Below are positions 1,699-19,957 of a stretch of 64,000 nucleotides of DNA, piece after piece. Both the position numbers and the translations under genes were made by a program. Location of the stretch: the NCBI GenBank assembly GCA_963717465.1, contig OY970340.1:736001-800000 (forward strand), written 5' to 3'. The DNA is from Candidatus Bathyarchaeota archaeon (lineage in GTDB: Archaea; Thermoproteota; Bathyarchaeia; Bathyarchaeales; Bathycorpusculaceae). The notes under the pieces were generated by a model that made no database searches, was not told the DNA's origin, and saw only the letters and a list, made by a program, of their open reading frames with translations. How positions within the stretch are numbered: the stretch's first letter is position 1; every line of letters begins with the position of its first letter.

Positions 1699-3281
1699 TT
1701 ACCTTTTCACTTCTTTTGCCTGTGTTCCTTTTAGTAGTTTGGATAGAAGTTCCATTTTAAGCTGTGTTTGGACGTCAAAATTGCCTCTGTAAGCTTCATG
1801 GTCTTTGCCTAAATCATAGCACGTCTTGTCATCAATGTCAATAATTATTCCTGGCATACCTGCCTCTTCAAGTTCATCTTGATGTTTGCAGTAGAATGCT
1901 TCGCAACAGCAGCCGATAAAGCCCTTTGCGCCTGCTTTCTTTTTCTCAGATAGCGTGTCTCATTAAATGCTCGAAGTTTTGGATTGTAATTACGTCTTTT
2001 AGCCCAAGTTCTTCAGCCCATTTGTACACTTGCCCAACTGAGCATCGTCCGCATTTATTACAGCCTTCTATCCACTTGTACTTGCAATCGCTGGGTTTGG
2101 CACAGTAGGGTAAAAGGAGAAAATCATACCCGTTTTGCAATAGTTTTTTGTATTGGTTAGTTACGGGGTAAATGTGATTTGCATCTGGTAAACTGATTCC
2201 GAATGTTTCAAATGATGTTTTGTCGATTGCTTGAAGAATTAGCTGCAGAATTATTTCAGGTGTCACACCGGGCAAGCTGAATTTTTTTTTGAGCAAAGAA
2301 GTCAAAGACAATTTTCCTGATTTCATATGCGTCGCAGTGGACAAATTTCATGGTTGCTTCAAAGTCTAATATCGCTTTTGATGGGAAAACGAAGAAGTCA
2401 CCCGTTACAAGGATGCTCTTTATGATGTTGGTTCCTCTGTCAATCGCTAGTGAAACTCGAATTAGTCCTCCAGGAGTTTTAGCTATGGCGTGAACGACTG
2501 CTGCTTCGTTTAATGGTCTGCGGTCAAGGTAAATCCATTCTTCCGACTTAAAGTATGGCAATTTTTTTTCAAAAAGTTTCTTTTCGGCAATTTTTAGTTT
2601 GCCTGGTTCAAGTTTAATGTTTAATGTATGCTCAAAGCTTTTTTTTATGGCGGTTTTTATTTCTTCCAAGTTTGAGCTGTGTCCAAGTTCGCGGTCTATC
2701 CAAGTTACTCTTTCTTTGGCTGATTTTAGCTCCTTATCCTTCAGTTTTGCAATTGGGATTCTTAAGGCTCGAATCATCATCTCAACGTTGAAGTCTATAA
2801 GAAGCGTTCCTTGAAACAGGAAAGCATCTTCTCTTTCGACTCCTCCTGTCCCTGAAATTTTTCTTCCTTTTACTTCTATGTCGTTTTTAGGGCGGTAAGT
2901 TGCTGGGATGCCGATTTTTTTTAATGCTTCAATTGCACCCTTGCACATTAACTGAAAAAGCCTTTCAACGTTAGTGTATTCAGGTACCGATTTGCGCAAT
3001 GCTACGATTTCCCATCCGAGCACTTTTTCGTCAAAAAGCAGTGCGCCTCCTCCTGTTAATCTTCGATTGAAATCAATGTTGTTGCTTTTGACGTAGTCAA
3101 GGCGGACTTCATGTTCAATGTCTTGATGATAACCCACTAAGGCTGCTGGAGGACTGAATTGGAGAAAGCGAAATGTGTTCGGGGCGATATGTTTTGATAC
3201 TGCTTCCAGAATTATGTCATCAAGTGTCATGTTTTCTGCGGCAGTCATATGTCCCGTGTCTAAAAATCGCCATTTCTTCAC
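1699..3281 (-). CDS. lplA: Lipoate-protein ligase fused to a Cys-rich DUF116-like C-terminal domain, frameshifted
   Basis: RRLTGGGA, KNDIEVKGRKISGTG, KTPGGLIR, GDFF; continues via 1946-2344 (LPYCAKP..C..GCNKCGRC) and GFIGCCCEAFYCKH to TAA at 1699. Confidence 0.85.
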
Positions 3282-4330
3282 CTTACAAGCCGCTCCGTCG
3301 ATGAATCGATTATTTCTTGCTTGTTCTTTAAAGATTCAATATCCTGCCAGATAAGCGAGCAGCATTCTTCGTGGAAAATTGTTTTTAGTCCTGCTTTCAT
3401 GGCTGTTTTAGGGGCTTCTTCGCTTGGGTAAGCGATGCCGTTTATTCCTGCCTTAATCGCCAGCACGTCAGTTTTAACCCTGTGAATCCCTCCAGGTCTT
3501 GCGCATCCTAATAGTATTGGCTTATTAGGCATAAGATGTCTGCAAGCCAAAATCACACGAGCAACATCTAAGGCAGAAGGAGGTTTCACTTGCTCCATTG
3601 ACGTGTTTTTTAGCGGTTTTAAGGCGACAATAACTACTGCAGTGGGGTTTGTTTCCGATATTATTTGAACAGCTTTTTTTTCGCCTTTAAGTTTGCCATA
3701 ATGTATCCCAACCACTATATGGGGCACCGTTGGAATGTTGTTTTGCTGTAATGAAATAAGCGATTGCTTAAAAACATCTATGTCGCAATCAAGATGGTAA
3801 ACGTCCTTAATTGTTTCTTCATTACCTAGCACATCCAGCATTGCCGCATCAATATGTGCTTTGGCTAATGCTTTGGCGAGTGAAGGCGAAATAAGCCCAG
3901 TGTGAACAACAACCTTTAGGTCGAGTTCCTCTTTTACTCGCTTTATTGTGGGAACAAATTCTGTTAGTGGAACAGCGCCTTCCTTTTGGCTTCCGCCGCT
4001 TATAAGACACCCTTGACCTCCAAGTTGTTTAATTTTTAGGCATTGATTGAATAATTCTTGAGGATTAGTGGCGGGAATCATGCTTTCAAGCAATGATTTT
4101 TTGCAGTGTTCACAGTTTAGTTGACAATTTTTTCCGGTAACCGAAATTGCAGGAAAACTTTGGCAGTTCTTAGTTTGGTAGACCTGTGTGTCATACTGTA
4201 CCATGCTTGGAATGTAAAAGTGGATTTCGTCTGAAAAATTTTTACACCTTAAGGCAATGGCTTCATCAAATAGAGTCTTCAGACGGTTGAAGGGTTCGTT
4301 GAAACATTGGTTAATGGTTTTTTCAGCCAA
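3278..4330 (-). CDS. lipS1: Radical SAM lipoyl synthase subunit of the LipS1/LipS2 type (GCAR and CC motifs)
   Basis: CQLNCEHC radical SAM motif, LGCARP and C-terminal EECC; adjacent to lipoate ligase. LipS1 vs LipS2 label assigned from recalled motif definitions. Confidence 0.75.
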   Translation of the reverse strand: MAEKTINQCFNEPFNRLKTLFDEAIALRCKNFSDEIHFYIPSMVQYDTQVYQTKNCQSFPAISVTGKNCQLNCEHCKKSLLESMIPATNPQELFNQCLKIKQLGGQGCLISGGSQKEGAVPLTEFVPTIKRVKEELDLKVVVHTGLISPSLAKALAKAHIDAAMLDVLGNEETIKDVYHLDCDIDVFKQSLISLQQNNIPTVPHIVVGIHYGKLKGEKKAVQIISETNPTAVVIVALKPLKNTSMEQVKPPSALDVARVILACRHLMPNKPILLGCARPGGIHRVKTDVLAIKAGINGIAYPSEEAPKTAMKAGLKTIFHEECCSLIWQDIESLKNKQEIIDSSTERLVR

Positions 4331-4361
4331 ATACGACCCATCTTTTAGCAGAATGCCTGAT

Positions 4362-5481
4362 TTATGACAAGCAACTTATGCAGTTGCTGCATCCGAGTCC
4401 TTCCGCCCATTCTTTAACTGGGACATCGGAGTAGTCCAGCAGTTGTTTTCTAATTACTACTATGTCTTCGTTGTTAGGCGTGAAGGGATAATTTCGCATT
4501 TCACCCATGTAAGCTTGATACGGAGTGTAGTCTCCAAAGGGTCTGTTGCAAGCGTTATCTTTGGTTTTACTGGCACATCCCGATGTCATAAAGGGTAATC
4601 CACCCTTTATTTCATCGTTCAAGATTTCTTTGTCGACATTGTAGTTTGTAACTTTGCCTTCATCATTAAACGAGATCTGGTTTATAGTGATTTTTCCTTT
4701 ATTAATGAGATATCGCGCAAGCTGTACCCGACGATAATGCCCAATGGGTGGTTGAAGACAATCCTGCATTTGCGACTCTTCTTCTGCGAAGAACGAGAAC
4801 AGGTGAGTTGTCGCCCCGAGGTCATACGCGTTTTGGATTGCTTGTATCATTTGCTTTTCAGTTTCGCCTAAACCGACAATTAAGTGTGTTCCGACGTTGT
4901 ATTGCCCGAAGATTTCTACTGTATCTTTAACTATTTTCCAGTAGTGTTCCCATTTATGTGGGCCTTTGACGCCTTTGCCTCGGAACTTATCAAACAATTC
5001 CGGAGTGACAGCGTCAATGGCTATTCCTATCTTGTCTGAGCCTGCATCTTTGAGTTTAGTTAGCCAGTCTTTGTTAATAATTGTAGGCGCTACCAATGTG
5101 GAAATAGCATCCGTTTTTTTCCGTAATTGTTTAACAATTTTTAGTGTATCTTCTTTTGCTCTCACGTTTGTAACCATCGAAACACAAACCCGTTCAATAT
5201 GAGAGCATCCTTTACTACCCATTCTTTCCAAGATTTCGTTCAAGCTTACGGTTGGCCAGTCAACCCTGATGAAACTTTGCTGATTCCACTTCTTAGAATT
5301 ATGTCGTCGCGCCTGATAACCCGCAGTATGCGCATTTTCCAACGCAGCCTTCGTTGTAGGTCAGTAATAGGTTGAGGCAGTAGAGTTTTGCATCTCGAAA
5401 GAATTTGCCTTCTGCTAAGCCCATTGTCATGGCTGCAGCATGGCTTACGCGCACGTATTCTGGGGATTCGTAACTATTCAA
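4362..5481 (-). CDS. lipS2: Radical SAM lipoyl synthase subunit of the LipS1/LipS2 type (TxGC...CNRP motif), frameshifted near 5310
   Basis: SPEYVRVS, CVGKCAYC, FIRVDWP, HLIVGLGETE, TSGCASKTKDNACNRP; ORFs 5299-5481 and 4362-5342. Confidence 0.75.
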
Positions 5482-5954
5482 TTCTTGGCACCTTTCAGAA
5501 TTGTAATATCCTGTGATATATGAACTGGTGCTCCATTCTGCAGGGCTCTTAATGCGAAACTTGAGTTCTTTGTTATTTCAACGCATCTTTGGGCTCTAGC
5601 TTTGTCGGCTTCATTTGCTGTTTCAACATGAAAGACGGCGTCGACGCCGATTAATTCATAGCCGTTGGCGCCTAGTTTGACTACGGCGTTGACTGTAACT
5701 TTTAGGCTTTTAATTTTAAGTCTCATTCTCTCCTTCGTGTACAGGAAAGTTGTTAGTAAACAACCTCCAATTGACGAGAAGAAGAGTGCACATGGGCTGA
5801 CAAATTTGCCTTTTCCACCAAACTCAGTAGGCCTGTCTAAGCTAAACTCATGAACAGGGCTTCCTTGATTATCGCCAACATGTACTTTTCCACCGCTTTT
5901 TCCATCCCACTCAATCTCAGCAGAATACTCCAAACTATTCGGGATGGAAATCAA
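5478..5954 (-). CDS. OsmC/Ohr family protein
   Basis: DRPTEFGGKG..SP..LF.SSIGGC motif. Confidence 0.8.
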   Translation of the reverse strand: MISIPNSLEYSAEIEWDGKSGGKVHVGDNQGSPVHEFSLDRPTEFGGKGKFVSPCALFFSSIGGCLLTTFLYTKERMRLKIKSLKVTVNAVVKLGANGYELIGVDAVFHVETANEADKARAQRCVEITKNSSFALRALQNGAPVHISQDITILKGAKN

Positions 5955-6016
5955 AAACTTCAGCCTTTAAAAAACTAAAATTATTGGTTGTGTTTTACTG
6001 GAAAATATAAGAGGGA

Positions 6017-6445
6017 TTATTTTTTGACTCTTGTTTCAATTTCTTTTTTGTACCATTCAACGGATGCTTCGCCATGTACCAAGGCTTCCATTTCTTCAGG
6101 CTTTGTTGGCTTTAATATGGCTATCCAGCCTTCACCGTAAGGGTCATCGTTAATCAATTTTGGTGTTGCTCGTAGTTTTGCATTTACTTCATCAACTGTG
6201 CCTGTAACTGGAGATTCGACTGCACCAACCCATTTTTGGCTTTCAATGTTTGCGACTGCCTTCCCTTGTTCGATTGCTGTGCCTTTTGGTTTAGCGCGGA
6301 CAAACATCAATTGTTGAGCAAGCTTTTGTCCTAAATCAGTTATTCCAACTCTTATTCTGCCGTCTGGTTCTTTTTTTGCCCAAGTTACTCCTCTTGGCCA
6401 ATAGTTAAGGTCTTCTTTAAGTTCATATTCTCCAACTTTAACCAT
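6017..6445 (-). CDS. gcvH: Lipoyl-carrier GcvH-family protein, LbpA-like
   Basis: RVGITD, IESQKWVG lipoyl-lysine motif, SPVTG.V.EVN, INDDPYGEGW. Confidence 0.9.
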   Translation of the reverse strand: MVKVGEYELKEDLNYWPRGVTWAKKEPDGRIRVGITDLGQKLAQQLMFVRAKPKGTAIEQGKAVANIESQKWVGAVESPVTGTVDEVNAKLRATPKLINDDPYGEGWIAILKPTKPEEMEALVHGEASVEWYKKEIETRVKK

Positions 6446-7485: not shown

Positions 7486-7968
7486 TCAAAAGCGAGGTTG
7501 AAATAAACCATCGTCAATGTTATTTTTAATATCCGCTGGTGGTGGCTGTGGCTTTACAGGTGGTAGACCTGGAAACTCTTTTCTTATGGTCATCCATGCT
7601 ATCTTTAATGGTCTTTCCATGCTCTCTAGAAAGAATACGACGTCATCGTTTCCACCTAAAGTTACCAGTATCTCGCTGTTTATTAACAGGGCAACCATGT
7701 AAGACTCTCTGCCTTCCAAGCAATGTTTCAGTATCTGCACTGCTACATATTCCATAATCAGTGTTGGCTCTTTTACTGCTCCTTTGTGTACTGTTATTTT
7801 GTCTTGATGTGCTTCAATTTGCAAGTTGGCTTTAGGGCAATCTGCAAACCGGATTTCAACAACCATTTCACAGCCTTTAAAGGCTTCAAGAGCTGCAGGG
7901 TCTACACTAGCAATCGTGAATAATCGATGCATGAAGTCCAATAGCTTTGGTTCAATATCAGTTGACAT
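7486..7968 (-). CDS. SCP2 (sterol carrier)-like protein, paralogue of 11808-12227
   Basis: SCP2-like pattern (KITVHKGAVKEPTLIMEY); aligns by eye with 11808-12227 from KLLDF to EFPGLP. Confidence 0.55.
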   Translation of the reverse strand: MSTDIEPKLLDFMHRLFTIASVDPAALEAFKGCEMVVEIRFADCPKANLQIEAHQDKITVHKGAVKEPTLIMEYVAVQILKHCLEGRESYMVALLINSEILVTLGGNDDVVFFLESMERPLKIAWMTIRKEFPGLPPVKPQPPPADIKNNIDDGLFQPRF

Positions 7969-8064
7969 ATCATGTCCTCAACACTTTGATATTTTAACTA
8001 AGTACAATAAAAAGGTAATAAAAAAATTTAACTTATTTATGATAGTCTTTCAGGCTTTCCAAGA

Positions 8065-9093
8065 TTACTTCTTCGGTACGTACTCTTTAGCTGCTTCGAC
8101 GAAAGCTTTTACGTTCGCAAGTGGGACTACTGATGAGATTCCGCATCCTGGCTCCAGCAAATCAGCGCCTGCCTGTAATGCATTCATTGCTTCAGCTTTT
8201 ACTTCAGCCGGTGTACCAAAGACTAGTGTCTTCTTTGAGGATACGTTGCCTAAGATTTTAACGTCACCGACTAAGTTCTTAATGTTAGCAATGTTTACAG
8301 CTTCTTCTATGCTTATGCCATCGAACCCTGAATCGACCATTTCAGGAATTAGTTTTTCTGTTCGCCCGCAAATGTGCAAGACTCTAATTCCGCCTAAGTT
8401 GTCAGTTAAATCGAGTAGTACGGGTTTTACAAATTTCTTGTACCAATCTACGCTTATCATTTCAAGTGACGCCATTGGCTCAGCAATACATACAATGTCA
8501 GCACCTGCTTGAAATTGCGCTTTTGCATATTGCAAAACGAAATCGTATCCAAATTTAGTGTATGCCTTGATGTTGTCAGGAGATCTTACAATCCATTTCA
8601 AGAAAGTTTCTATTCCTGGTAACTCTCCGGCAATTGTGAACGGTCCAACTACGTGACTTGCAATTGGTAGATAATCGCCTACTTGTTTCCTTAATAGTCT
8701 GATGGCTTCCAGCACAACGGGAATTCTGCCTAATTCGAGAATGTTTTCAGGCATTTTTAAGTCTTCGGGTTTCGCAAAGGGATGTCCTTTTACTGCAGGA
8801 AGATGCTCGGGGCTATCGAACCATTTGACCTCGCATCCTAATGCTTCAGCTTCTACCACGAAATCGAAGGGAACCCTGACACATTCGACGCCAGCTAATT
8901 CATAGCTAGCTATAGCTAGTTTTGCCATCTTTTCCGCGTTTTTGTGGGCGTCTGGCCAGAATATTCCAGTAGCGTTTTGCATATCAACGTTAACTGTTCC
9001 TCCACATCCCGCAACTGAAGTCGCTGGTATCCTATCAACAGGCCCTCCTAACAGGGCAGCCATAACTCGTCGTTTAGGGCTAAATTTTTTCAA
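8065..9093 (-). CDS. mtaA: MtaA/CmuA-family methylcobamide methyltransferase (URO-D fold)
   Basis: PFDFVVEAEALG, GPFT.AG, Zn ligands LHICG and PGCG. Confidence 0.85.
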   Translation of the reverse strand: MKKFSPKRRVMAALLGGPVDRIPATSVAGCGGTVNVDMQNATGIFWPDAHKNAEKMAKLAIASYELAGVECVRVPFDFVVEAEALGCEVKWFDSPEHLPAVKGHPFAKPEDLKMPENILELGRIPVVLEAIRLLRKQVGDYLPIASHVVGPFTIAGELPGIETFLKWIVRSPDNIKAYTKFGYDFVLQYAKAQFQAGADIVCIAEPMASLEMISVDWYKKFVKPVLLDLTDNLGGIRVLHICGRTEKLIPEMVDSGFDGISIEEAVNIANIKNLVGDVKILGNVSSKKTLVFGTPAEVKAEAMNALQAGADLLEPGCGISSVVPLANVKAFVEAAKEYVPKK

Positions 9094-9476
9094 TTACTTT
9101 CCTCCTTTTCTTTCAAAATTAATCTTGCGTACCTAATAAGATTTCCGTAAAGAAGGCAAAACTATCCTGTGAGCAAAATAATATGGCGGAAAGATGTTTT
9201 TCAGGCAAAGTTCATGGGTTTGTTGTTTTACAAGTTTTCAAATGTTCAAGTTTTCAAAGTTTGCTGGCGAAGTTGCGCTAAGTTAAGAAATAGAATTGTT
9301 ACTTGCTATAGTGTGCATCGTTAAACTTGTTTGGCGTACCCTGCAGCATGTTCTATTGATTGTGCGGGTGAGAAAAGCTTGTTAAAAGTTTTTTTGAAGC
9401 ATTTATAAGGCTTTTGTCGACTTATCGCAAAAATATAAATACCTGCAAGCCCAACCAAGGTATTAGGTGAATAAAA

Positions 9477-11048
9477 TTGAGACTTGGAATTAATATTCCT
9501 AAACGATTCGCTCCACCTATAGCAACAGACGAGGAGCTTATGAAAATCCATCAAGCCGCAATGTATCTATTACAGAACGTTGGAATTGGAGGAGTCACTC
9601 CTAAACTACAGAAATTGTTCAAGGATCTAGGCTGTACTGTTATTGACGAGAAGAAAGGCGTTGTTACGATACCTCAACATCTTGGAATGGAAGGCATAAA
9701 TGCGATACCAACTACGAACATTTTGCCCGGTAGGGTACCCGCAAACGACATTGTCTTGGAAGCTGGAAGCCGAAGATGTTTTGCTGGGGCTTTCGGAATC
9801 ATGGCCCTTTACGCAAAATTTAATCCGAGCAACCGAAACTTTGAGTATCGAGACGGAGTTGATGCTGACAACTGGAGAGAACAGAAGGTTACTGAGTACT
9901 TCCCAGAATTCGACATGGTAAGCCCAATTTACCTGCCTATGGACTTGGCAGAGGCAGGCTTGCCAGTGGACACTCATGACCTCAACAGCACCATTCAGTG
10001 CACTACCAAGCATATTTGGCACATTGACGCAATTGACCATATTGACTGCTACACTGAGTTAGCCGCTGAAGTTCTCGGAGGAATGGACGAAGTTGCGAAG
10101 AGACCATTCATTACTAACCATGGAGACACACCAGGCATCGTTTACGGTCAAAAGACCAGTGACAGAATGTACGCAACTGTAGAAGGCTGGCAAAAAGGCA
10201 GGCCTCTGATGATAGACTTCACTGATGTTTGCATACCTGGGTTCCAGGGTCCCCTTAGCTTAACAGGAGCTTACGCAGTGACCGTTGCTTGCGACATTTC
10301 AATGGCAGTAGGTTTAGCTCTAGGAATGAACGGAGTTGGAAAAGGGCGTATCCCCGACATGACCTACGCACTAGTCATGGCCATGGACGCATACACACAA
10401 CAGTTAGGATGCATGACTGAATTTACCAAGTGTCTAGCTCTACACGCGAACTTCTGGCACCGCAACTACCCAACACCAAAAGCTACCATGTGGCCAGGTG
10501 TAACCATTGGAGGTAACATGGGTAATGCAGATACACAAGGTGGTATGTTTACTTACCATTTGATGAACGCCATGCAGAGCGGTACTGATCAGTTCGGATG
10601 TTGGCCCACAACCGTAGGTCCAAACGGAATTAGGATGGCAAGTCACACCATCAACGCTGAATGTATCCGAATGTTTACACACATGTTCCAAGACCTTGAC
10701 TTCGGCGCTTCAAACTTCGCGTATGAAAAATGGCTCAAGAAAGGTCCAAGAGGCGACTTCATGAAGGAACCTGAAACTCTCAAAGGAATGGCAGACATTG
10801 GTTTCATGCCCATGAGACACGGTTACGGACTATATGAAACAAGGCAATGGCTACGATGGATTGAAGACAGACTCGGCTTAGATGACCGCGCAGAAGCTTT
10901 GACTGCAAAGATTATAAAGGAATATCCAGCTCCACTACCACCAAAAGACGTAGCTGACAAAATGAATGCAATAATCACTAAATACGACAAGGTACTACAA
11001 ATCGGCGGCTATCAAGTAGACGTAAAGGGAACCGGAGCAAGATTCTAA
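9477..11048 (+). CDS. Divergent trimethylamine methyltransferase (MttB)-superfamily protein, no pyrrolysine
   Basis: DEELMKIHQAAMYLLQNVGI, TTKH, GP.SL.GA, ADTQGG, GPRGDFM.EPETL, PLP.DV..KM..II; no in-frame TAG; corrinoid gene follows. Confidence 0.7.
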   Translation: MRLGINIPKRFAPPIATDEELMKIHQAAMYLLQNVGIGGVTPKLQKLFKDLGCTVIDEKKGVVTIPQHLGMEGINAIPTTNILPGRVPANDIVLEAGSRRCFAGAFGIMALYAKFNPSNRNFEYRDGVDADNWREQKVTEYFPEFDMVSPIYLPMDLAEAGLPVDTHDLNSTIQCTTKHIWHIDAIDHIDCYTELAAEVLGGMDEVAKRPFITNHGDTPGIVYGQKTSDRMYATVEGWQKGRPLMIDFTDVCIPGFQGPLSLTGAYAVTVACDISMAVGLALGMNGVGKGRIPDMTYALVMAMDAYTQQLGCMTEFTKCLALHANFWHRNYPTPKATMWPGVTIGGNMGNADTQGGMFTYHLMNAMQSGTDQFGCWPTTVGPNGIRMASHTINAECIRMFTHMFQDLDFGASNFAYEKWLKKGPRGDFMKEPETLKGMADIGFMPMRHGYGLYETRQWLRWIEDRLGLDDRAEALTAKIIKEYPAPLPPKDVADKMNAIITKYDKVLQIGGYQVDVKGTGARF

Positions 11049-11073
11049 GGAGACAAAAAAGAAGGAATCATTT

Positions 11074-11727
11074 ATGGTAACTAAAGCTGAAGTACTTGAA
11101 CACCTCGCAAAAGCAATCATTGACTATGATGAGGAAAAGGCTGTTGCAGCGGCAAAAGAAGCAGTAGAAAACAAGCTGGAGATTATGGACGCTATCGAGA
11201 AAGGCCTATCAGTTGGCATCAAAGAAGTTGGTGACCGCTTTGGCCGCTTCGAATACCCACTACCCTACGTAATCATGGCTGCAAACGCGATGACTGCTGC
11301 AGTTAACTACCTCAAAGAAAAGTATCCCAAAGACAAGCTGCCAAAGGCAAAAGGCATAGTCGTAATTGGCACGGCTTTCGGCGACATCCACAGCATCGGC
11401 AAGAACTTGATTGCTGACATGTTGCGTACCGATGGCTTTGACGTTTATGACTTAGGTGAAGAAATTCCAACCGAGGACTACGTCAAGAAGGCTGAAGAGG
11501 TCCATGCTGATATTGTTGCGATGGGCGCTTTGATGACTAGCAGCATGTCTTATCAGAGAGCGCTGGTTGATACGCTTGTTGAGCGTGGTCTTCGTAAGAA
11601 GTATAAGGTTCTTGTTGGCGGTACTCCGATGACTGATGATTTCTGCAAACGCATTAAGGCTGATACTTGGGGTGCGGACTGCGGAGACGCAATCAAGAAG
11701 GCAAGAATGCTCGTAGGCAAAACTTAA
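11074..11727 (+). CDS. Methyltransferase cognate corrinoid protein
   Basis: Cap domain plus GDIHSIGKN (DxHxxG), GALMTSS, VGG. Confidence 0.92.
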   Translation: MVTKAEVLEHLAKAIIDYDEEKAVAAAKEAVENKLEIMDAIEKGLSVGIKEVGDRFGRFEYPLPYVIMAANAMTAAVNYLKEKYPKDKLPKAKGIVVIGTAFGDIHSIGKNLIADMLRTDGFDVYDLGEEIPTEDYVKKAEEVHADIVAMGALMTSSMSYQRALVDTLVERGLRKKYKVLVGGTPMTDDFCKRIKADTWGADCGDAIKKARMLVGKT

Positions 11728-11807
11728 ACAAACTGCAAAACCGAAAAACAAAAATATCTATCCTCTTTTTCTTTTCTCTGTATAAAATCTAAAATTTAAA
11801 ATGAAAG

Positions 11808-12227
11808 GTGGAAAATGTTATGTCTTATGAAGATAAGTTGATGAATTTCGCGTATAAGTTGTATTCTAAGCTTGCTGATGATCCTGCTATTATTGATGCG
11901 TGTAAGGATCAGGAGAATGACATGATTGTTGAACTAAGTATTGGTGATGTTCCTGATGTTGTTTGGCAGATTGGTTCGAAGGGTAAGAAGTGGGTTGTGA
12001 ATAAGGGTAGTGTTGATGAGGCTAATGCGGCTATTCAGTATCTTAAGCTTAAATACTTGAATGATTGGTGGTCTGGTAAGATGGGTGCTGACGCGTTGTT
12101 TTCGCAAGGAGCCATGTCACTGTTGTCTGGTGACCTGGGTGATCTGGGTTTCATGGCGCCAGTTGAAGAGCCATTAAAGAAAGTTTATCAGCAGATTAAA
12201 GGCGAATTTCCAGGTCTACCAGAGTAG
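11808..12227 (+). CDS. SCP2-like protein
   Basis: KGSVDEANAAI...WWSGKMGADALFSQGAMSLLSGDL resembles the SCP2 G..D...AF..G.L...GD signature. Confidence 0.6.
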   Translation: MENVMSYEDKLMNFAYKLYSKLADDPAIIDACKDQENDMIVELSIGDVPDVVWQIGSKGKKWVVNKGSVDEANAAIQYLKLKYLNDWWSGKMGADALFSQGAMSLLSGDLGDLGFMAPVEEPLKKVYQQIKGEFPGLPE

Positions 12228-12295
12228 ACTGCAAAAATCCTATATTTTTATTTTTTTGTCGTTTAAAACATTGTTCTCTCAGAGAAAATAAGGCA

Positions 12296-12877
12296 CTATT
12301 TCTTAAGGTCAAAACCTATAATAACAGTGCCTAGTTTTCGGTTAAAGATGTCTATTCCCATCCTGCTTTTTTGATAATTATCAGAATGGGGCGTTGGGGA
12401 CCCTACTATAGCATTGCAGGCGCCTGAGACCTTTTCAACTTCGGGACATGGCAAAGGTGAGAAGACCACTTTGGAACGCTCTATAAGCATTTCCTCAGGT
12501 TTAGGCATCCTATCTTTGTAGAGCGCAATGTTCCCCATAAAGATGGCACTCTTATTCTTTTTTAATTCTTCCCGTTTGACAGGGTCAGGAATATCCTCTC
12601 CTATCACTTTTCCTTTCCACTCAACGATCATCATTGGTACAGGAGGCCATTCAAAAACCATATCCGTTACGCAAGCAACTACGACTTCCCGCTTTAGGAC
12701 TTCCTTAACCCCACGGTTATCGCCAAGCCCAAGCCCCATCAATACCTCTCCCTCAGACAGCGCTTCAAGCTCCAAAATCTTCTGTCTATCCTCATTAGTG
12801 AGAACTAATACTTGACGGATACCTTTGAGACTTTTGAGTCTTGATAATACTTCGTTAACTACTTCCTGATGCGACAA
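12296..12877 (-). CDS. Hypothetical protein
   Basis: 193-aa ORF with globular composition; no family recognised. Confidence 0.65.
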   Translation of the reverse strand: MSHQEVVNEVLSRLKSLKGIRQVLVLTNEDRQKILELEALSEGEVLMGLGLGDNRGVKEVLKREVVVACVTDMVFEWPPVPMMIVEWKGKVIGEDIPDPVKREELKKNKSAIFMGNIALYKDRMPKPEEMLIERSKVVFSPLPCPEVEKVSGACNAIVGSPTPHSDNYQKSRMGIDIFNRKLGTVIIGFDLKK

Positions 12878-13025
12878 GAATAATCCCTACGCCATGCCAG
12901 ACGCAATAATAATTATCTATTCTCGTCTATAAATCATTAGGGTATGATCATGCAAATTTGCCAGAATCGAGGTTGACTGCATTAAGTTTGTAAAACAACT
13001 AAAGAACGAGAAAGATTTACTTCTT

Positions 13026-13958
13026 TTAAGACTGCTTGCTTGTTTGTTTTGGCATGATGATTTGGAGTTGATTGGATGGTGTCAATGTTTTGAGTTTTAC
13101 ATGTTCGATTTCGAAGACAACTGAACCTTTTAGTCCCGCATGAAGTCGCCACGTTCTCTTGTCGAAACTTGGAACAAAACCTTGTCGCCATAAATCTACT
13201 ACCGATTGAAAAGGATAACCTGGAAGGTTTAGTTCTTCAGTGTATTTCCATTTTTTGATTTCTGGAAAGAGTGAACCTATGTAAGCCCAGAATGAATCCC
13301 CGACTGAGGCCCTGATTGTATCCCACACTGAGGCTCTGACTGAGGTTCCAACTGCCTCCCAGACTTGAGCCCAGCCCGAAGACATAACTGAATCCCAAAT
13401 TGAATCCCAGAACTCATCCCCGAGTGAAGCCTTGACTGAATCCCAGACTGGATACCATGTTGCTTCCCAGATCGAATCCCCGATTGATGCCCCAACTGAA
13501 TCTCCAACTGAACCCCCGATTGAATCCCAGACTGAATCATAGATCAAAACCCAATTTTGAAGAAGCATTACTTGCTCGTTGGTCACTTTCTTAGGTTCGA
13601 GTTTAAACGGGTGAACCGGTTTACACGCTTCCAAATAATTAAAACCGAACAAATCATTAATTTTTTCCTGCGGAATCTCCTCAACTATGGTCAATTCTTT
13701 GAAACCACATTTCTCTGTATCCTCGACTACTGGTTTTCCTTCAACCAAAAATAACCGAAAAGGAATTTTCGTGACAATAAATATGTCCAAAGGCCTTTTG
13801 CAAGCATGTAACACGCTGTCTGAACAGAGAACTGGCTTAGCTTTATAATTAGGTACTTTTATAATTCGCCCAATATTCTCCGCATAATTAATCGTGTTTC
13901 CACTATGCAAGTCCCATCCTTGAAGGTTGGCTGCTTTATAATAATGGTTGTTCCCCAT
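13026..13958 (-). CDS. Hypothetical protein with W/G-D-S-V/I tetrapeptide repeats
   Basis: 310-aa ORF with GGGGA RBS; repeats DSVWDSIGGSVGDSVGASIGDSIW... Confidence 0.75.
   Translation of the reverse strand: MGNNHYYKAANLQGWDLHSGNTINYAENIGRIIKVPNYKAKPVLCSDSVLHACKRPLDIFIVTKIPFRLFLVEGKPVVEDTEKCGFKELTIVEEIPQEKINDLFGFNYLEACKPVHPFKLEPKKVTNEQVMLLQNWVLIYDSVWDSIGGSVGDSVGASIGDSIWEATWYPVWDSVKASLGDEFWDSIWDSVMSSGWAQVWEAVGTSVRASVWDTIRASVGDSFWAYIGSLFPEIKKWKYTEELNLPGYPFQSVVDLWRQGFVPSFDKRTWRLHAGLKGSVVFEIEHVKLKTLTPSNQLQIIMPKQTSKQS
13290..13545. repeat. Degenerate 12-bp coding tandem repeat
   Basis: Recurrent aatccc(a/c)(g/a)a(c/t)tg units with 12-nt period. Confidence 0.75.
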
Positions 13959-14316
13959 TCCGAGTCCCCTCTACTTTTCTTGCACAGACACCCAAGACCC
14001 ATTCGGCATTCTAATTTTAACTGACATTTGTTTTAACGTGCGACCTAAATAATCCATTCACTCGTCCTTTAATTTTTTTCCTTCTTGTTTCACATTTTGC
14101 TCTCTTTCTAACTTGTTACTTTGATCCTATAGTTGATGCAGACATTTTGAGATTAATGATGCCAAATTTTTAATATTAACGTCGACCATAACTATTCGAA
14201 ATCAATGGAAAACGAAACTGTAAAAATTCTAATCCTCTTTACCAAGATTTCGTTGATGTCCAAATCAAGTTTAGAACACTTAATTGATTGGGTATAACTA
14301 GGCAAGGGAATGTGTC

Positions 14317-15297
14317 ATGTTTAAGTTTAAGGCTTCACAAAAAATCTTCGAAATAGGCAATATGCGTATTGGCGGGCAGCCTGGTGAGCTTCCGAAAGTG
14401 TTGTTCGGAAGTATTTTTTACAGCAAACATAAAATCGTGAAGGATGCGAAAAAAGGGGTCTTTGACAGAAGAAAAGCAGAGATTTTGATAAACAAGCAAG
14501 AAGAACTTTCTGACCTTACCGGCAACCCCTGCGGAATAGATGTTGTATGCACCTCGCTTGAATCAGCTTGCGCACTAATCGATTTTGTCGCAGAAGCAAC
14601 TGATGTGCCGATTTCTACTGATTGCTGGGCTCCAGAGATTAAGATCAAAGTTTTGCGTCACGTTGCTGAGGTTGGTTTGTCACAAAGAATTATTTATAAT
14701 AGTATAATGTCTGTCCCGTTTCCTAAATAAGAAGAACTCAACGCTATTAGAGAATCTAAAGTTAAGGCAGCAATAATTTTATGCTATAACTTGAAGGATC
14801 GGTCAGCGAGCGGGGTTCTGTCTTTACTGAGAGGCACGGAAGAGCAAAGAGGCCTGTTGGAGATTGCACAAGAGGCAGGAATAGAAAAACCGTTGGTAGA
14901 CGCAACCATATTTACATATATTCCGAGCATAGGCGTAGGCGCTAGGGCCTGCTTTATGGTGAAAGACGAATTTGGGCTTCCAGTAGGCGGTTCACCTGGA
15001 AATGCAACAACCGTTTGGAAAAAACCAAAGGAGCTTGGACAAGACATCTATAAAGCCTGTGAAGCAGCTTCAGAAGTCATACCCTTAGCCTTAGGCGCAG
15101 ACTATCTACACTATGGACCAATCGAATCAGCTCCCTGGGTATTTCCAGCATGCGCTGGAATAGACGCAATGATTGCCATGGCAGCACAAACAGAATTCGG
15201 AACAAAGACCCTGACTACTACACATCCATTGAACAAGCTATTCCCAGATATCGTTGAAAAGTTAGAAAATAAAAAAAATCGGTTAGAAAAGCACTGA
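14317..15297 (+). CDS. mtrH: MtrH/MtgA-like methylcorrinoid:tetrahydropterin methyltransferase with in-frame TAA at 14728-14730
   Basis: IGGQPGELP..LFGSIFY..H, IYNSI, LVD, GLPVG..PGNA, GADYLHYGPIE; both ORF halves in the same frame. Confidence 0.85.
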
Positions 15298-15391
15298 AAA
15301 CGCAATAATGATGCACCAATGGATGTCATGACAAAGTTTTTATTATTGAAAAGGAATTAACCCTTTCAAAATTTACTGGGTAGATTAAAGT

Positions 15392-16039
15392 ATGAGTGAA
15401 AATGAAATGCTAAAAAAACTTTCTGATGCGGTTGATGCTGGTGACACGGAAAAGGCTCAGAATGCAGCAAAAGAGTCTCTGGCTAAAGGTGTCCCACCAT
15501 TGAAGGCAATCCTAAATGGACTAGCAGAAGGAATGAGAATAGTTGGTGAAAAGTATGAAAGACAAGAATATTTCTTGCCTGATATGCTTTCGTCAGCAGA
15601 CGCCATGTACGCCGGTCTAGACATTTTAACTCCACAAATTCCTGCATCCGAAAAGACAACTAAAGGAAAGGTACTTCTCGGCGTTGTTGAAGGCGACGTA
15701 CATGACATTGGAAAAAACATCGTTAAAATTATGCTAACAGCTTCTGGATACGAAGTCGTGGACTTAGGCAAAGATGTACCAACACCAGAATTCATTAACA
15801 AAGCTAAGAGTGAAGGCGCGCAAATACTAGCGATGTCAACACTTATGACACCAACACTCATGAACATGAAGGCTGTAGAAGACAAACTAAAGGAGGCAGG
15901 CTTGAAAGGCAAAGTGAAAACAATCATAGGCGGCGGTTCAGTAAGTGAAGAATGGAGAGCAAAAATAGGCTCAGACGCATATGGCAAGGATTCCACAGAA
16001 GCCGTTAACAAAGTTAAGCAGTTAATAGATAGCATGTAG
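15392..16039 (+). CDS. Corrinoid protein (MtaC/MttC-like)
   Basis: GVVEGDVHDIGKNIV, STLMTPT, IGGG. Confidence 0.93.
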   Translation: MSENEMLKKLSDAVDAGDTEKAQNAAKESLAKGVPPLKAILNGLAEGMRIVGEKYERQEYFLPDMLSSADAMYAGLDILTPQIPASEKTTKGKVLLGVVEGDVHDIGKNIVKIMLTASGYEVVDLGKDVPTPEFINKAKSEGAQILAMSTLMTPTLMNMKAVEDKLKEAGLKGKVKTIIGGGSVSEEWRAKIGSDAYGKDSTEAVNKVKQLIDSM

Positions 16040-16044
16040 AGGTT

Positions 16045-17987
16045 ATGAAAGAAGAAAGAACAAAAAAAAGTTCATTGCCGTTTGCCGAAATCGAAATAGT
16101 TTTTCAACCTTATGGCAAACGAGCAAAATTTCCCCCCGGCATCGTAATTATGGATGCAGGTAAGACTTTAGGTGTAGATTTATCTTCACTTTGTTCTGGA
16201 AAAGGCACTTGTGGAAAATGCAAAATTAAGGTCCAAAAAGGGGCTGACGGATTAAGTCCTCTTACAGAAAAAGAACTCAAGCATCTGTCTGAAGAGGAAC
16301 TTAACGCATCCTTTAGGTTAGCATGCCAAGCTCAATTAACTACGCCTTCGGTAATTTATGTTCCATTGATTAGAAGAGTTGGCGTACAAAGGCTGCAAAC
16401 AGAAGGGCTTGATGTACCAGTAAAACCTAACCCATTTGTAAGAAAATACTTTTTGCAAATGCCTCAGCCGACGCTTCATGACAATAGATCCGATGAAGAT
16501 AGACTCCTTGATTCATTAACTAGGCAGTTTGGCCTATCTAACCTTAAAATCGATTTTGAAGCTGCAAAAAGCCTTCCCATTAACCTTCGAAAAGAAAACT
16601 ACGCTGCGACCGCAGTAATCTGGAACAATGAAATTAGAGCTGTTGAACCAGGAGATACGTCTGATAGATGCTATGGGCTTGCTGAGATATTGGGACCACG
16701 AAGTTGGCTGGCTTCTTGATGAATCTTAAAACAGGCAAAGTTGTTTCTGTCGCCGCTAGAATGAACCCTCAAATCCCATTTGGCGAAGATGTCATGTCGC
16801 GGATAACTTATGCCATGATGGGTGAATGGAAAGCCCTTAAAGAGCTTCAAGCAGCTGTTGTTTCGGGAATTAACGAAATAATCGAGGAAAGCTGCAAAAA
16901 AGCTAATGTGAAAATTGAGGAAATATACGAACTCAACTTCGTGGGTAATACGGCAATGCAACTTTTATTTCTCGGCATCTGGCCTCAATATGTTGGATTT
17001 TCCCCTTATCCACCAGTATTACGAAAAGGCGTTGACGTAAACGCTGCAAACTTGGGATTAAAATCTCATCCAAACGCGAATGCACACTTCGTCTCAATCA
17101 TCGGAGGCTTCGTGGGAGCAGATAGCGTTGCAGATATTTTGGCATCAAAAATTTTTGAGTCAGACAAAATTATGATGACCATTGACGTGGGTACAAACAC
17201 TGAGATTCATATAGGAGACAAAGACTATTGCATGGCTGACTCTTGCGCATCTGGACCTGCCTTTGAAGGAATGGAAATAAAATTCGGTATGAGGGCAGCT
17301 ACAGGGTCCATCGAAAAAATAAGCATAGACCCGGACACCTTGGACCTTAACTACAGAACAATAGGGAACGTTCCTGCAGTTGGTATATGCGGCTCAGCAC
17401 TTATAGACGCTCCAGCTGAGTTACTAAAGGCTGGCATAATTAATTTAAGAGGCAACTTTGTCCCTGAAATGACGGCAAAAACCAAAAGATTAAGAAAGGG
17501 ACCTGACGGCGGGGAATTTATTGTTGCAAAGAAGAATGAAACAGGTATAGATACAGACATCGTGATAACTTTAGCAGATATCAGAAAGCTTCAGCAAGCA
17601 AAAGCTGCCATTCATACTGGTGCTGAAATTCTGATGAAAGCAATGAACATAACTGAAAAAGACATTAGTAAACTGGTAATTGCAGGTGCATTTGGAAACT
17701 ATATCGACGCCGAAAACGCAAGAACCATCGGTATGTACCCTGAAATTCCCTATGAAAGAATCGAGTTCTGCGGAAACCTTGCTGGCACAGGCTCCAGGCT
17801 ATCTCTAATTTCAAAAGAGATGAGAGACCAAACTGAAAGAATAAGTGAAAAAGTAAAATATTACGAGCTTGCAGCGGACCCCAACTTCCAAGCTGAATAC
17901 GTGAAGTCTCTGTACTTACCCTACGCTGACCTGAATAAGTATCCAAGCACTAAAGAATTGCTGAAAAGGCTAGGTCGAGTTCCGTAA
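16045..17987 (+). CDS. RamA/RACo-type ATP-dependent corrinoid reductive activase (2Fe-2S + ASKHA), frameshifted near 16685
   Basis: CSGKGTCGKC, RLACQ, DIGTT, NPQIPFGEDVMSRI, IDVGTNTE, CASGPAFEG, GICGS, AGAFG. Confidence 0.9.
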
Positions 17988-18205: not shown

Positions 18206-19957
18206 ATGTCTGTATCTTCATCGCTAACTGGTCGCCCAACGCCTATCTTATCCAAAGGCTACTCTAGGCTGAGGGACGTTAGAAGAAATAACATTAAGGT
18301 TGCAGTTTGGCTTTCCGAGAGCTTAAAAACAATGTTGGGTCCAAAAGGGATGAACAAGATGCTAGTGGACGTGCTCGGAAAACCACTTATTACAAATGAT
18401 GGAAGAGAGGCGCTGGATAACATGGGTGCCACTAATCCTGTTGCCAAGATGATCATAGAAATTGCGAGAACCCAAGATTTCGTAGCTGGTGACGGCACGA
18501 AAACCTCTGTAATTCTCGCTGGAGAACTGCTAAAAAAAGCTGAAAAACTGTTAAACCAGAAAGTCCATCCAATATTTATAATCAAGGGTTATGAAGTAGC
18601 GTCCAAAAAGGCCCTAACGTTTCTAGATACTCTTGCCACCGGTGTGTCAATCGAAGACGAGGCGACTTTGAAAAAACTTGTCAAAACAGTTATTGGTGGC
18701 AGGCTTGATGAAGACTCTAAGAATCATCTCACTAATCTTATTGTTACTGCAGCCAAGACGATTGCTGAAGAAAAATCAGGCAAAATAGTTGTAGATCCTA
18801 TTCATTTGGACATAAAGAAGCAAGAGGGAAAAAGCGTAAAAGATACGGAACTAGTTAGCGGCTTAGTCCTCACTAGAACGAAGCCTCACATAAAGATGCC
18901 AGATAAGATTGAAAATCCAAAAATTGCATTAGTTAAATTACCCCTTGATCCTCATGCGCACAGAGCTGTAGAAACACGCAAAATAATCATGCTTAATCGC
19001 CCAGAGGATTTGAAGGGAATCAGCGATATGGCAATTGAGCATGCTCAAGGTATTGTGAATCAAGTTAAACGCGCTGGAGCAAACGTGTTGTGCTGCCGCA
19101 AGACGATTAGTGACCTCATTCTAAGTTGTTTTGCAGACGCTGGTATACTCGCTTTGAATCTAGTTTCAGAAGAAGACTTACTAAGACTTGAGAAAGCGAC
19201 GGGAGCCAAGATCGTGATGAGTATGAATGAATTAACTGCTGAAGACTTAGGCCAGGCTGGATTGGCAGAATATAGAAGCTCATCGTTCCATGAACTCCTA
19301 TTTGTTGATCGATGCAAAGATCCAAGGGCTGTCACAATACTAGTTAGAGGTGGCACTGTTCAAATGGTCGCAGAAATAGAAAGGATAATTAAAGATTGCA
19401 TCAAAGCGATTTCGGTGGCAATAGAAGCTGGAAAAGTTATTTCAGGCGGCGGAGCTGCAGAGATTGAAATCGCCCGAAAACTAAGAGCTTTATCAAGGAC
19501 GTATAAAGGCAAGGAACAGTTGGCGATAGAAGCTTTCGCTGAAGCTGTGGAGACTATTCCAAGAACTCTTGCATCTAACGCTGGTTTAGACCCAATCGAT
19601 GTACTGGTAGAGTTAAGGTCAGGTCATGCTAATGGCAACGTGAATCTCGGGGTTAATGGGCTTGGGCGTAAGGTTGAAGATATGGCGGAGAGAGGCTGTT
19701 TAGATGCATTCACCGTCAAGCAGCATGCAATTAAAGTTTCTTGCGAGATTGCCCAGATGATTTTAAGGATTGACGATGCCGTAGCCGCTACGAATCTGAA
19801 GGTAATTAAAGCTGAGAAGAAGAGGAAAGAAGACGAGGTTGCATTCAAGACTAACGAGAGGGTTATTGAAGCAAGTAAAAATCGTGAGGAGTTTAAAGAA
19901 CTCGAAAAGTTTGATAAAGAATTAGACTATAGACAGGAGCATCCAGAAGTTCTTTAA
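18206..19957 (+). CDS. ths: Group II chaperonin (thermosome subunit), divergent
   Basis: LGPKGMNKML, ITNDG, GDGTKT, GGGAAE, NAGLDPI, ILRIDD. Confidence 0.9.
   Translation: MSVSSSLTGRPTPILSKGYSRLRDVRRNNIKVAVWLSESLKTMLGPKGMNKMLVDVLGKPLITNDGREALDNMGATNPVAKMIIEIARTQDFVAGDGTKTSVILAGELLKKAEKLLNQKVHPIFIIKGYEVASKKALTFLDTLATGVSIEDEATLKKLVKTVIGGRLDEDSKNHLTNLIVTAAKTIAEEKSGKIVVDPIHLDIKKQEGKSVKDTELVSGLVLTRTKPHIKMPDKIENPKIALVKLPLDPHAHRAVETRKIIMLNRPEDLKGISDMAIEHAQGIVNQVKRAGANVLCCRKTISDLILSCFADAGILALNLVSEEDLLRLEKATGAKIVMSMNELTAEDLGQAGLAEYRSSSFHELLFVDRCKDPRAVTILVRGGTVQMVAEIERIIKDCIKAISVAIEAGKVISGGGAAEIEIARKLRALSRTYKGKEQLAIEAFAEAVETIPRTLASNAGLDPIDVLVELRSGHANGNVNLGVNGLGRKVEDMAERGCLDAFTVKQHAIKVSCEIAQMILRIDDAVAATNLKVIKAEKKRKEDEVAFKTNERVIEASKNREEFKELEKFDKELDYRQEHPEVL

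Follow-up and report, generated by a model that had tools for sequence, protein, structure and literature searches.

A pyrrolysine-free MttB-type methyltransferase locus with two SCP2-fold proteins in a bathyarchaeon, and its possible role in demethylating poorly soluble ring compounds

The window locus

The window analysed here, a stretch of 64,000 nucleotides from the Candidatus Bathyarchaeota archaeon assembly GCA_963717465.1 (contig OY970340.1, positions 736,001 to 800,000 of the forward strand), carries a corrinoid methyl-transfer locus in which two divergent operons each contain a gene for a small protein of predicted SCP2 fold, named scpA and scpB below. The host genome (G000) is 3.05 Mb long and 88% complete, and C1 denotes its contig. 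All of the open reading frames (ORFs) named in the initial annotation were found where it had placed them, and the architecture is that of the known four-part corrinoid methyltransferase system. The genes, including those for methyltransferase 1 (MT1) and methyltransferase 2 (MT2), are as follows.

7486..7968, minus strand: scpA, SCP2-fold protein of 160 aa, 32% identical to scpB and included in the alignment that was folded as SCP2
8065..9093, minus strand: MtaA/CmuA-family MT2 (TIGR01463, 342 bits against a cut-off of 235)
9477..11048, plus strand: pyrrolysine-free MttB-superfamily MT1 of 523 aa, from an unassigned clade (PF06253, 61.8 bits against 25; no internal stop)
11074..11727, plus strand: corrinoid protein, cognate of the window MttB (PF02310 and PF02607)
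11808..12227, plus strand: scpB, SCP2-fold protein, final gene of the mttB operon (AlphaFold 2 model, Foldseek, VIA)
14317..15297, plus strand: MtrH/MtgA-family MT2, interrupted (PF02007 on both halves)
15392..16039, plus strand: second corrinoid protein (TIGR02370 above cut-off)
16045..17987, plus strand: RACo/AcsV-type corrinoid reductive activase, split (PF00111, PF17650, PF17651, PF14574)
18206..19957, plus strand: thermosome paralogue, directly 3' of the activase gene (NF041082/NF041083)

None of the five genes in the mtaA and mttB operons is interrupted. The intergenic gaps within these operons are 96 bp (scpA lies downstream of mtaA), 25 bp (from mttB to its corrinoid gene) and 92 bp, and the ATG at 11820 is the probable start codon of scpB. 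The product of 8065..9093 is likely, judging from its family matches, to be a methyl-corrinoid:coenzyme M (CoM) methyltransferase, with CoM as the predicted acceptor; it passes the NF004889 cut-off but falls below that of the MtaA equivalog (358 against 400). The initial annotation had described a single complete island. Its genes are all present, but they form two blocks rather than one tight unit because two unrelated minus-strand ORFs (12296-12877 and 13026-13958) sit between the halves; similarly, the four-part gene set is there, but mtrH contains an in-frame stop and the activase gene is frameshifted. The mtrH stop is a TAA at 14728-14730, where a paralogue at C1:1652629 (82% identity, itself frameshifted at its end) stays open, and it may be a real substitution. 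In the activase gene the frameshift lies near 16684 and may be an assembly error, because frameshifts are frequent in this assembly (two in mcrA, mcrB also affected, and two of the six MtmB-like and two of the five KstD-like genes split). An intact RACo paralogue of 638 aa is encoded at C1:1655442. No contig spanning either lesion was obtained from the one public DNA run with matching DNA (share 0.09). Moreover, the activase is not of the RamA type, as had been thought, but a 2Fe-2S protein of the RACo/AcsV type (PF17650/17651/14574) that matches AcsV at E 5e-108 against E 3e-28 for RamA; it scores 98.5 bits with TIGR04270 (RamA), below the cut-off of 500, and a true RamA (609 bits) is encoded at C1:2303673. 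The second corrinoid protein is 36% identical to the first and 78% identical to a copy near mcr.

The two small proteins are homologous (32% over 133 aa, E 8e-22; an independent homologue of scpA, P0031, is 70% identical to it), and Pfam, NCBIfam and PDB sequence searches gave no name for either. Neither matches PF02036 at its gathering cut-off of 21.3 bits, which is passed by their homologues P0033 (22 bits) and P0035 (54 bits). A profile search over 1.84 billion representatives returned eight proteins, the last of them a clear SCP2 (E 2e-4), and the ESM atlas returned SCP2-bearing clusters at 0.93, in which 12% and 53% of the members carry PF02036. The SCP2 fold originally assigned to both proteins is upheld, in the case of scpB by an alignment-based model that matches SCP2 domains in structure searches and in the case of scpA by homology. 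Given an 18-sequence alignment, which took in two clear SCP2 sequences from the profile search, AlphaFold 2 folded scpB with a pLDDT of 94 and a pTM of 0.88; the model from the single sequence was poor (pLDDT 51), and a Foldseek search with it was meaningless. Searching with the alignment-based model, Foldseek found 38 matches at E < 0.001 with SCP2 domains leading (E 9.5e-6), and the VIA structure search placed human SCP2 first (Z 11.6, root-mean-square deviation 2.5, 109 residues), with the top 10 rows, including all nine at Z >= 8, having the SCP2 fold. The predicted fold is thereby shared with human and yeast SCP2, UbiJ, the C-domain of alkyl sulfatase and A. fulgidus AF1534 (Z 7.8-11.6, root-mean-square deviation 2.5-4.1), but scpA and scpB are 8-21% identical to these proteins and constitute a separate subfamily below the Pfam cut-off. 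SCP2-domain proteins are carriers of hydrophobic ligands for soluble enzymes. In the literature searched, which did not extend to subscription papers or bioRxiv supplements, we found neither a link between SCP2 and corrinoid enzymes nor a description of this SCP2 component or MT1 clade; PMC10418091 mentions none of sterol, SCP, lipid or steroid. The papers cited below were consulted as excerpts.

SCP2 linkage within the genome and beyond it

The linkage of SCP2 genes to corrinoid methyl-transfer genes in the host genome is beyond chance. Custom profiles for the scpA/scpB family, which has six members, and for two further subfamilies identify 26 SCP2-like genes, 10 of them above the Pfam cut-off. 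Seventeen of the 26 are found no more than 3 kb from a gene for MttB, MtmB or a corrinoid protein and nine are not; 5000 random draws gave 1.4 on average and never more than 7, although paralogous copies are not independent events. Seven of the 10 MttB-family genes have an SCP2 gene within 2 kb. The genome encodes nine MttB paralogues (66-73% identical) and seven copies of the corrinoid protein (94-100% identical), and the gene order mttB-corrinoid-scpB occurs five times, in cassettes that are 72-83% identical in DNA over their full length. Variation among the MttB paralogues is greatest in residues 76-100, 351-375 and 401-425, where mean column conservation is 0.69-0.72 as opposed to 0.93-0.97 over residues 151-225. 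One paralogue (C1:1121408-1122982) has an in-frame TGA at codon 334, a variable position; because this lies off the pyrrolysine-equivalent site it is probably a lesion, and pyrrolysine was rejected as its meaning since the codon is TGA, PylS is missing and the site is not the aligned one. Lrp/AsnC-like regulators, named by eye, stand beside most cassettes and molybdenum enzymes (e.g. C1 positions 118833, 126763, 176698, 1209135 and 2812953); the window copy of the cassette has none.

The initial annotation had named absence of the linkage from related genomes as a refuting condition, and the outcome is mixed: the congeners searched lack the cassette, and lineages further away have it. PF02036 has 10 matches in the host genome, whereas among 94 congeners it has one match in 87, two or three in six and none in one, and there is no methyl-transfer match within 1.5 kb of any of 30 congener SCP2 loci. 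The single SCP2 gene of the congeners, which follows a cofE-like gene, was not found in the host genome with one query (G000:C1:605982-606733). No member of the MttB clade was detected in 119 congeners or in a draw of 400 genomes from the class, and one of 400 genomes sampled from the phylum (G568) has it; a search of 40 relatives for scpB gave no match. An initial search for loci related to the cassette was empty, and profile searches gave one locus each. Metagenomes hold homologues of the MttB clade at 48-72% identity, and the clade is rare but real. Two of the metagenomic proteins, P0022 (an MttB, 59%) and P0030 (a 'putative sterol carrier protein'), are each encoded on a 7288-bp JGI contig, probably one and the same, and on metagenome contig L017 the gene for a clade MttB (47%) is followed by a corrinoid gene and this in turn by an SCP2-like gene, which belongs to the second subfamily. 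Short near-identical pieces of the host genome are present in a peat metagenome run.

G568 belongs to another class of the same phylum, carries mcrA and pyrrolysine enzymes, and has a clade MttB and corrinoid gene at a contig end (locus L016). Its sole PF02036 match is in an operon of pyrrolysine-free mttB, corrinoid, SCP2, mtaA, MoxR, vWA, corrinoid, thermosome and mttB genes, with RamA as well. Its blocks of pyrrolysine MttB and MtbB-like genes lack SCP2, so that SCP2 appears to go with the enzyme class. In seven of 62 genomes of this other class we found an SCP2 of the second subfamily, which in six directly follows the corrinoid gene of a distant pyrrolysine-free MttB (the seventh lacks such a context); mtaA comes next in five of the six, giving the same four parts as in the window, and four of the six loci include a thermosome gene. 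In a quick version of the tree, with SH-aLRT support only and a long branch for the pyrrolysine MttB, the SCP2-linked MttB of the other class forms a separate deep clade, and SCP2 therefore accompanies two distant MttB clades. The long operon arrangement (pyrrolysine-free mttB-corrinoid-SCP2-mtaA-MoxR AAA-vWA-corrinoid-thermosome, with RamA) is seen at L064:9570-19975, L088, L090, L091 and L092 in one family that bears methyl-coenzyme M reductase (MCR), and its MoxR/vWA pair and additional thermosome suggest that assembly is specifically assisted. The window thermosome possibly belongs to the methyl-transfer system too; it is 42-46% identical to the thermosomes of the other-class loci and 31-43% identical to the remaining thermosomes of its own genome, values that do not establish orthology with the former.

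The methyltransferase and the neighbours of its sister cassettes

The window mttB contains no amber codon, PylS has no match in the host genome (the Methanosarcina control being positive), and MT1 scores 113 bits against TIGR02369 for pyrrolysine MttB, for which the cut-off is 525. Its nearest solved relative is Methanosarcina MttB (PDB 7XCL; E 2e-15 from the single sequence and 3e-25 from a profile). The system shares with Methanosarcina MttB/MttC/MtbA/RamA the order of MT1 and corrinoid genes, a CoM-type MT2 and an MCR-bearing host, but not the amber codon or PylS. In common with MtgB/MtgC/MtgA of Desulfitobacterium hafniense and MtcB/MtyB/MtpB/MthB of Eubacterium limosum, it has a pyrrolysine-free MttB as MT1, an adjacent corrinoid gene, an MT2 of MtrH/MtgA or MtaA type, a reductive activase and an aromatic residue at the position of MtgB Y97. 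It differs from these quaternary-amine systems in that MT1 matches MtgB only at E ~1e-8, its clade carries a variable insertion of 4-5 residues at the pyrrolysine-equivalent loop, SCP2 genes are added, and nine close paralogues use one type of corrinoid protein. A bathyarchaeial lignin O-demethylase, MtgABC of Ca. Baizosediminiarchaeum ligniniphilus, has MT1s of ~300 aa with no homology to known MT1s (PMC10989822); corrinoid demethylation machinery in Bathyarchaeia is common to both systems, but the window MT1 is a 523-aa MttB rather than a protein of that type, and no SCP2 figures in the excerpted account.

Most MttB-superfamily members have no known substrate, and all of the characterised pyrrolysine-free ones act on small acidic quaternary amines (PMC13080624). 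In MtgB, betaine is bound by Y97, F356, H348 and R312, and R312 is conserved in every characterised pyrrolysine-free MttB, including the phosphocholine enzyme MthB (PMC13080624). Across the 18 clade members aligned, with R312 mapped by the register of strand 7 and active-site alignments of ~20-25% identity, the R312 position is alanine in 17 and threonine in one, most having a lysine one position earlier, and the H348 position is tryptophan in 16 and phenylalanine in two. Y97 aligns with phenylalanine, so that an aromatic is kept, and F356 with glycine in a weakly aligned loop. The second SCP2-linked MttB clade likewise lacks the R312 arginine. Loss of this anion site argues against betaine or phosphocholine head groups, and the lipid-bound betaine or choline that had been put forward as substrate is accordingly disfavoured, although the low alignment identity makes this case fair rather than firm. 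The missing anion site and the accompanying lipid-carrier proteins together suggest that the methyl donors of this clade are of another class, insoluble in water.

The genes next to the sister cassettes of the window locus give a hint of the substrate class. Two of these cassettes lie directly beside pyrrolysine-free MtmB-like genes, one of the two across a regulator gene. A 20-kb island at C1:1206-1224 kb begins with mttB, corrinoid, scpB, regulator and acetylene-hydratase-like genes and continues with genes for a BaiCD-like flavoenzyme, SCP2, a short-chain dehydrogenase/reductase (SDR), a corrinoid protein, a KstD-like protein, an MtmB-like protein and SCP2. Six pyrrolysine-free MtmB-like and five KstD-like genes are present in the genome, three of the latter directly beside an MtmB-like gene and two near SnoaL-like genes. 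KstD-like and corrinoid genes accompany an MtmB-like MT1 at three loci, one of them in the 20-kb island together with the mttB-corrinoid-scpB cassette. The nearest solved relative of the KstD-like protein is 3-oxosteroid 1-dehydrogenase (E 1e-82), with which its motif tyrosines, which we take to be catalytic, are aligned; it falls below the KstD equivalog cut-offs and has a score near that for the cyclohexanone-type dehydrogenase. The three pairs of kstD-like and pyrrolysine-free mtmB-like genes (L031:14061-19169, L032:2171-7495 and L068:2452-13039) have corrinoid, CoxG, SCP2, BaiCD-like, SDR or lipocalin/CrtC-like neighbours, and their gene content makes them candidate archaeal steroid demethylation loci of the Abe type.

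In Phosphitispora sp. TUW77, KstD yields a dienone from which the MtmB-like AbeA transfers the steroid C-19 methyl group to a corrinoid (PMC11912376), the locus having the order abeA, coxG, kstD, abeA, corrinoid, abeA (PMC11912376 supplement); EmtAB of Denitratisoma and AbeABC carry out steroid C-19 methylation and demethylation, respectively (PMC11912376; bioRxiv 10.1101/714501). The set of genes at C1:2170-2176 kb (kstD, mtmB-like, coxG and corrinoid) is that of the TUW77 abe locus. The MtmB-like proteins of the genome and AbeA1' have in common a stretch R-x-N-L-A followed by G-I-x-P-W that is not in Methanosarcina MtmB, a likeness judged on motifs by eye and not by a tree, and the named relatives of these proteins come from Deltaproteobacteria, Myxococcota, Halieaceae, Binatia and Asgard archaea. 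What the window system would share with AbeABC and EmtAB is corrinoid methyl transfer on a hydrophobic ring by paralogous copies of MT1 and corrinoid protein. On the other hand, AbeA and EmtA belong to the MtmB family and the window MT1 to the MttB family, while the six MtmB-like genes lie elsewhere in the host, and TUW77 passes the methyl group to tetrahydrofolate rather than CoM.

The molybdenum/tungsten enzymes are closest to acetylene hydratase (E 1e-102), which is in turn the nearest characterised relative of catechol dehydroxylases (PMC7028382), and polyphenols and lignans therefore stay in play as substrates. Eleven such genes are found on G000:C1 (e.g. L030:6780-9092, L031, L033, L035 and L106-L110), all 11 with a TGA codon where acetylene hydratase has its metal ligand, Cys141. 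As SepSecS is above cut-off and there are two tRNA-Sec calls in the genome, selenocysteine use is likely, which to our knowledge is unusual for this archaeal group.

With regard to the fate of the methyl group, the host has an mcrBDCGA operon with methanogenesis markers at G000:C1:1660046-1665078 (names read from sequence), in which McrA is canonical-looking and confirmed by PF02249, mcrA and mcrB being frameshifted in the assembly. It also has hdrABC, and three more mtaA genes together with mtrH, a corrinoid gene and RACo at C1:1645-1677 kb. The host genome is the only one of 120 genomes of the genus with mcrA, and its McrA is 63-66% identical to that of G568. Neither MtrE nor acyl-CoA dehydrogenase was found in the 88% complete genome. 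The latter result argues that the SCP2 set does not serve beta-oxidation, and the two absences fit a predicted methyl-reducing methanogenesis without beta-oxidation. Oxidation of alkyl-CoM or alkanes was rejected given the identity to G568 McrA and the missing acyl-CoA dehydrogenase, and anabolic lipid methylation was considered less likely, as catabolism better fits nine paralogues with MtaA and MCR.

Proposed function and alternatives

We consider, with a probability of roughly 0.55, that the locus demethylates a ring compound of low solubility, resembling a steroid/terpenoid or a polyphenol, which is carried by SCP2 and whose methyl group ends up in methane. The hydrophobic methylated substrate suggested in the initial annotation is thereby retained as the likeliest reason for the SCP2 linkage. 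From the observed genes and linkage and the predicted fold, we infer substrate, ligand binding, direction and flux as follows. SCP2 would bind the hydrophobic substrate or product in the cytoplasm, and the MttB-like MT1, if it follows the chemistry of its family, would transfer the methyl group to Co(I)-corrinoid. MtaA would pass it to CoM for reduction to methane by the MCR of the same genome, and MtrH could divert methyl groups to the pterin pool. A RACo or RamA activase would reset oxidised cobalt, presumably from the intact genes elsewhere as the local copy is split, and the nine MttB paralogues may act on related substrates, all of them using a corrinoid protein that hardly varies. If this is correct, recalcitrant plant lipids or polyphenols would feed methane directly, and further methyltransferases for hydrophobic substrates could be located in genomes with the SCP2 gene as a marker.

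A wider and more tentative possibility is that the host is a methanogen harvesting methyl groups from steroids, terpenoids and related insoluble ring compounds of plants or microbes. KstD-like, BaiCD-like, SDR and selenocysteine-containing acetylene-hydratase-like enzymes would activate the rings, AbeA-like MtmB proteins and the new MttB clade would move carbon- and heteroatom-bound methyl groups onto corrinoids, some 26 SCP2 proteins would ferry substrates and products, and MtaA and MCR would make methane. Such a metabolism would open a new class of substrates to methanogenesis, and it would be the first case of steroid-type C-demethylation in archaea and the first role for SCP2 in corrinoid chemistry.

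Several observations weigh against a ring-compound substrate delivered by SCP2. The window locus has no KstD, MtmB-like or molybdenum-enzyme neighbours, its left neighbour being a lipoate-assembly cluster. KstD-like genes are absent from all four other-class genomes tested and MtmB was not found in G568, so a steroid-type context is not general to MttB-SCP2 operons. Annotated SCP2 gave no match in TUW77, the Abe host, in the material consulted, and no characterised MttB acting on steroids, terpenoids or polyphenols was found in the literature covered. A pyrrolysine-free MtmB, MtqB, acts on choline (PMC13044021), which detracts from the steroid context. In addition, the active-site mapping is of the low identity given above, and the six other-class genomes, being of one family, count as about one event. 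Finally, three cassettes share an scpB of 99-100% identity while their MttBs are only 71-72% identical, and SCP2 is therefore at most a broad carrier and not a determinant of specificity.

The near-identity of scpB bears also on a second explanation, in which SCP2 does not carry the substrate but partners the corrinoid protein or takes up the demethylated product, and the donor could be modestly soluble. Corrinoid protein and SCP2 are both 99-100% identical in the three cassettes with divergent MttBs, an scpB-type gene follows the corrinoid gene at 70-88 bp in all five cassettes, and the second subfamily holds the same place, directly after the corrinoid gene, in six of the seven other-class genomes. 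Against this explanation, in the cassette at C1:1206 kb the corrinoid protein is 99% identical but SCP2 only 67%, an SCP2 gene is lacking from the 3 kb around seven of the 21 corrinoid genes, the corrinoid proteins of the G568 pyrrolysine enzymes do without SCP2, and SCP2 genes also stand beside molybdenum enzymes and SDRs with no corrinoid gene near. We regard a corrinoid partner or product sink as rather unlikely.

A third explanation starts from the lipoate-assembly cluster (LplA, LipS1, LipS2, OsmC-like protein and GcvH), which lies on the minus strand at window positions 2256-6445, ~1 kb to the left of scpA. SCP2 could be the source of octanoate or lipoate for a protein-attached lipoyl thiol arm made by LplA, LipS1, LipS2 and GcvH, and this arm would replace CoM as methyl acceptor; other SCP2 genes of the genome are indeed located beside GcvH-like, corrinoid and UroD-like genes. 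These GcvH-adjacent SCP2s belong to a different subfamily from scpA and scpB, however, no GcvH or LipS ORF lies beside SCP2 in four of five cassettes or in the other-class loci (ORF lists inspected by eye, with no profile search), and 26 SCP2 genes seem too many for a single C8 ligand. We consequently judge a lipoyl acceptor improbable.

Demethylation of choline or betaine head groups on lipids that SCP2 presents would be compatible with the aromatic residue kept at the Y97 position, with tryptophans near the pocket and with the use of choline by MtqB (PMC13044021). The replacement of R312 and H348 and the unmatched F356 speak against it, the more so as R312 is kept even in the phosphocholine enzyme MthB (PMC13080624), and the neighbours of the sister cassettes are ring-modifying redox enzymes rather than lipases; head groups thus seem a poor candidate for the substrate. 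It is very improbable that SCP2 is a passenger copied with a recently acquired, duplicated cassette, part of the window block now decaying, as might be read from the similarity of the cassette copies in DNA, the mtrH stop, the TGA in one MttB paralogue and the failure to find the cassette in 119 congeners, because two MttB clades with a deep split between them have SCP2 genes of different subfamilies at one and the same place in the operon, the five genes of the window mtaA and mttB operons are intact, and frameshifts in mcrA and mcrB indicate assembly error.

The two ORFs that separate the blocks of the window locus are both on the minus strand. The first (12296-12877) encodes a 193-aa protein to which Pfam and NCBIfam scans assigned no family and for which the ESM atlas gave no match; two distant paralogues are encoded in the genome (C1:1707091 and 2908440). 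The second (13026-13958) encodes 310 aa with a low-complexity W/D/S/V repeat and a weak match to DUF7666, has no paralogue in the genome, and looks like an insertion between the two blocks.

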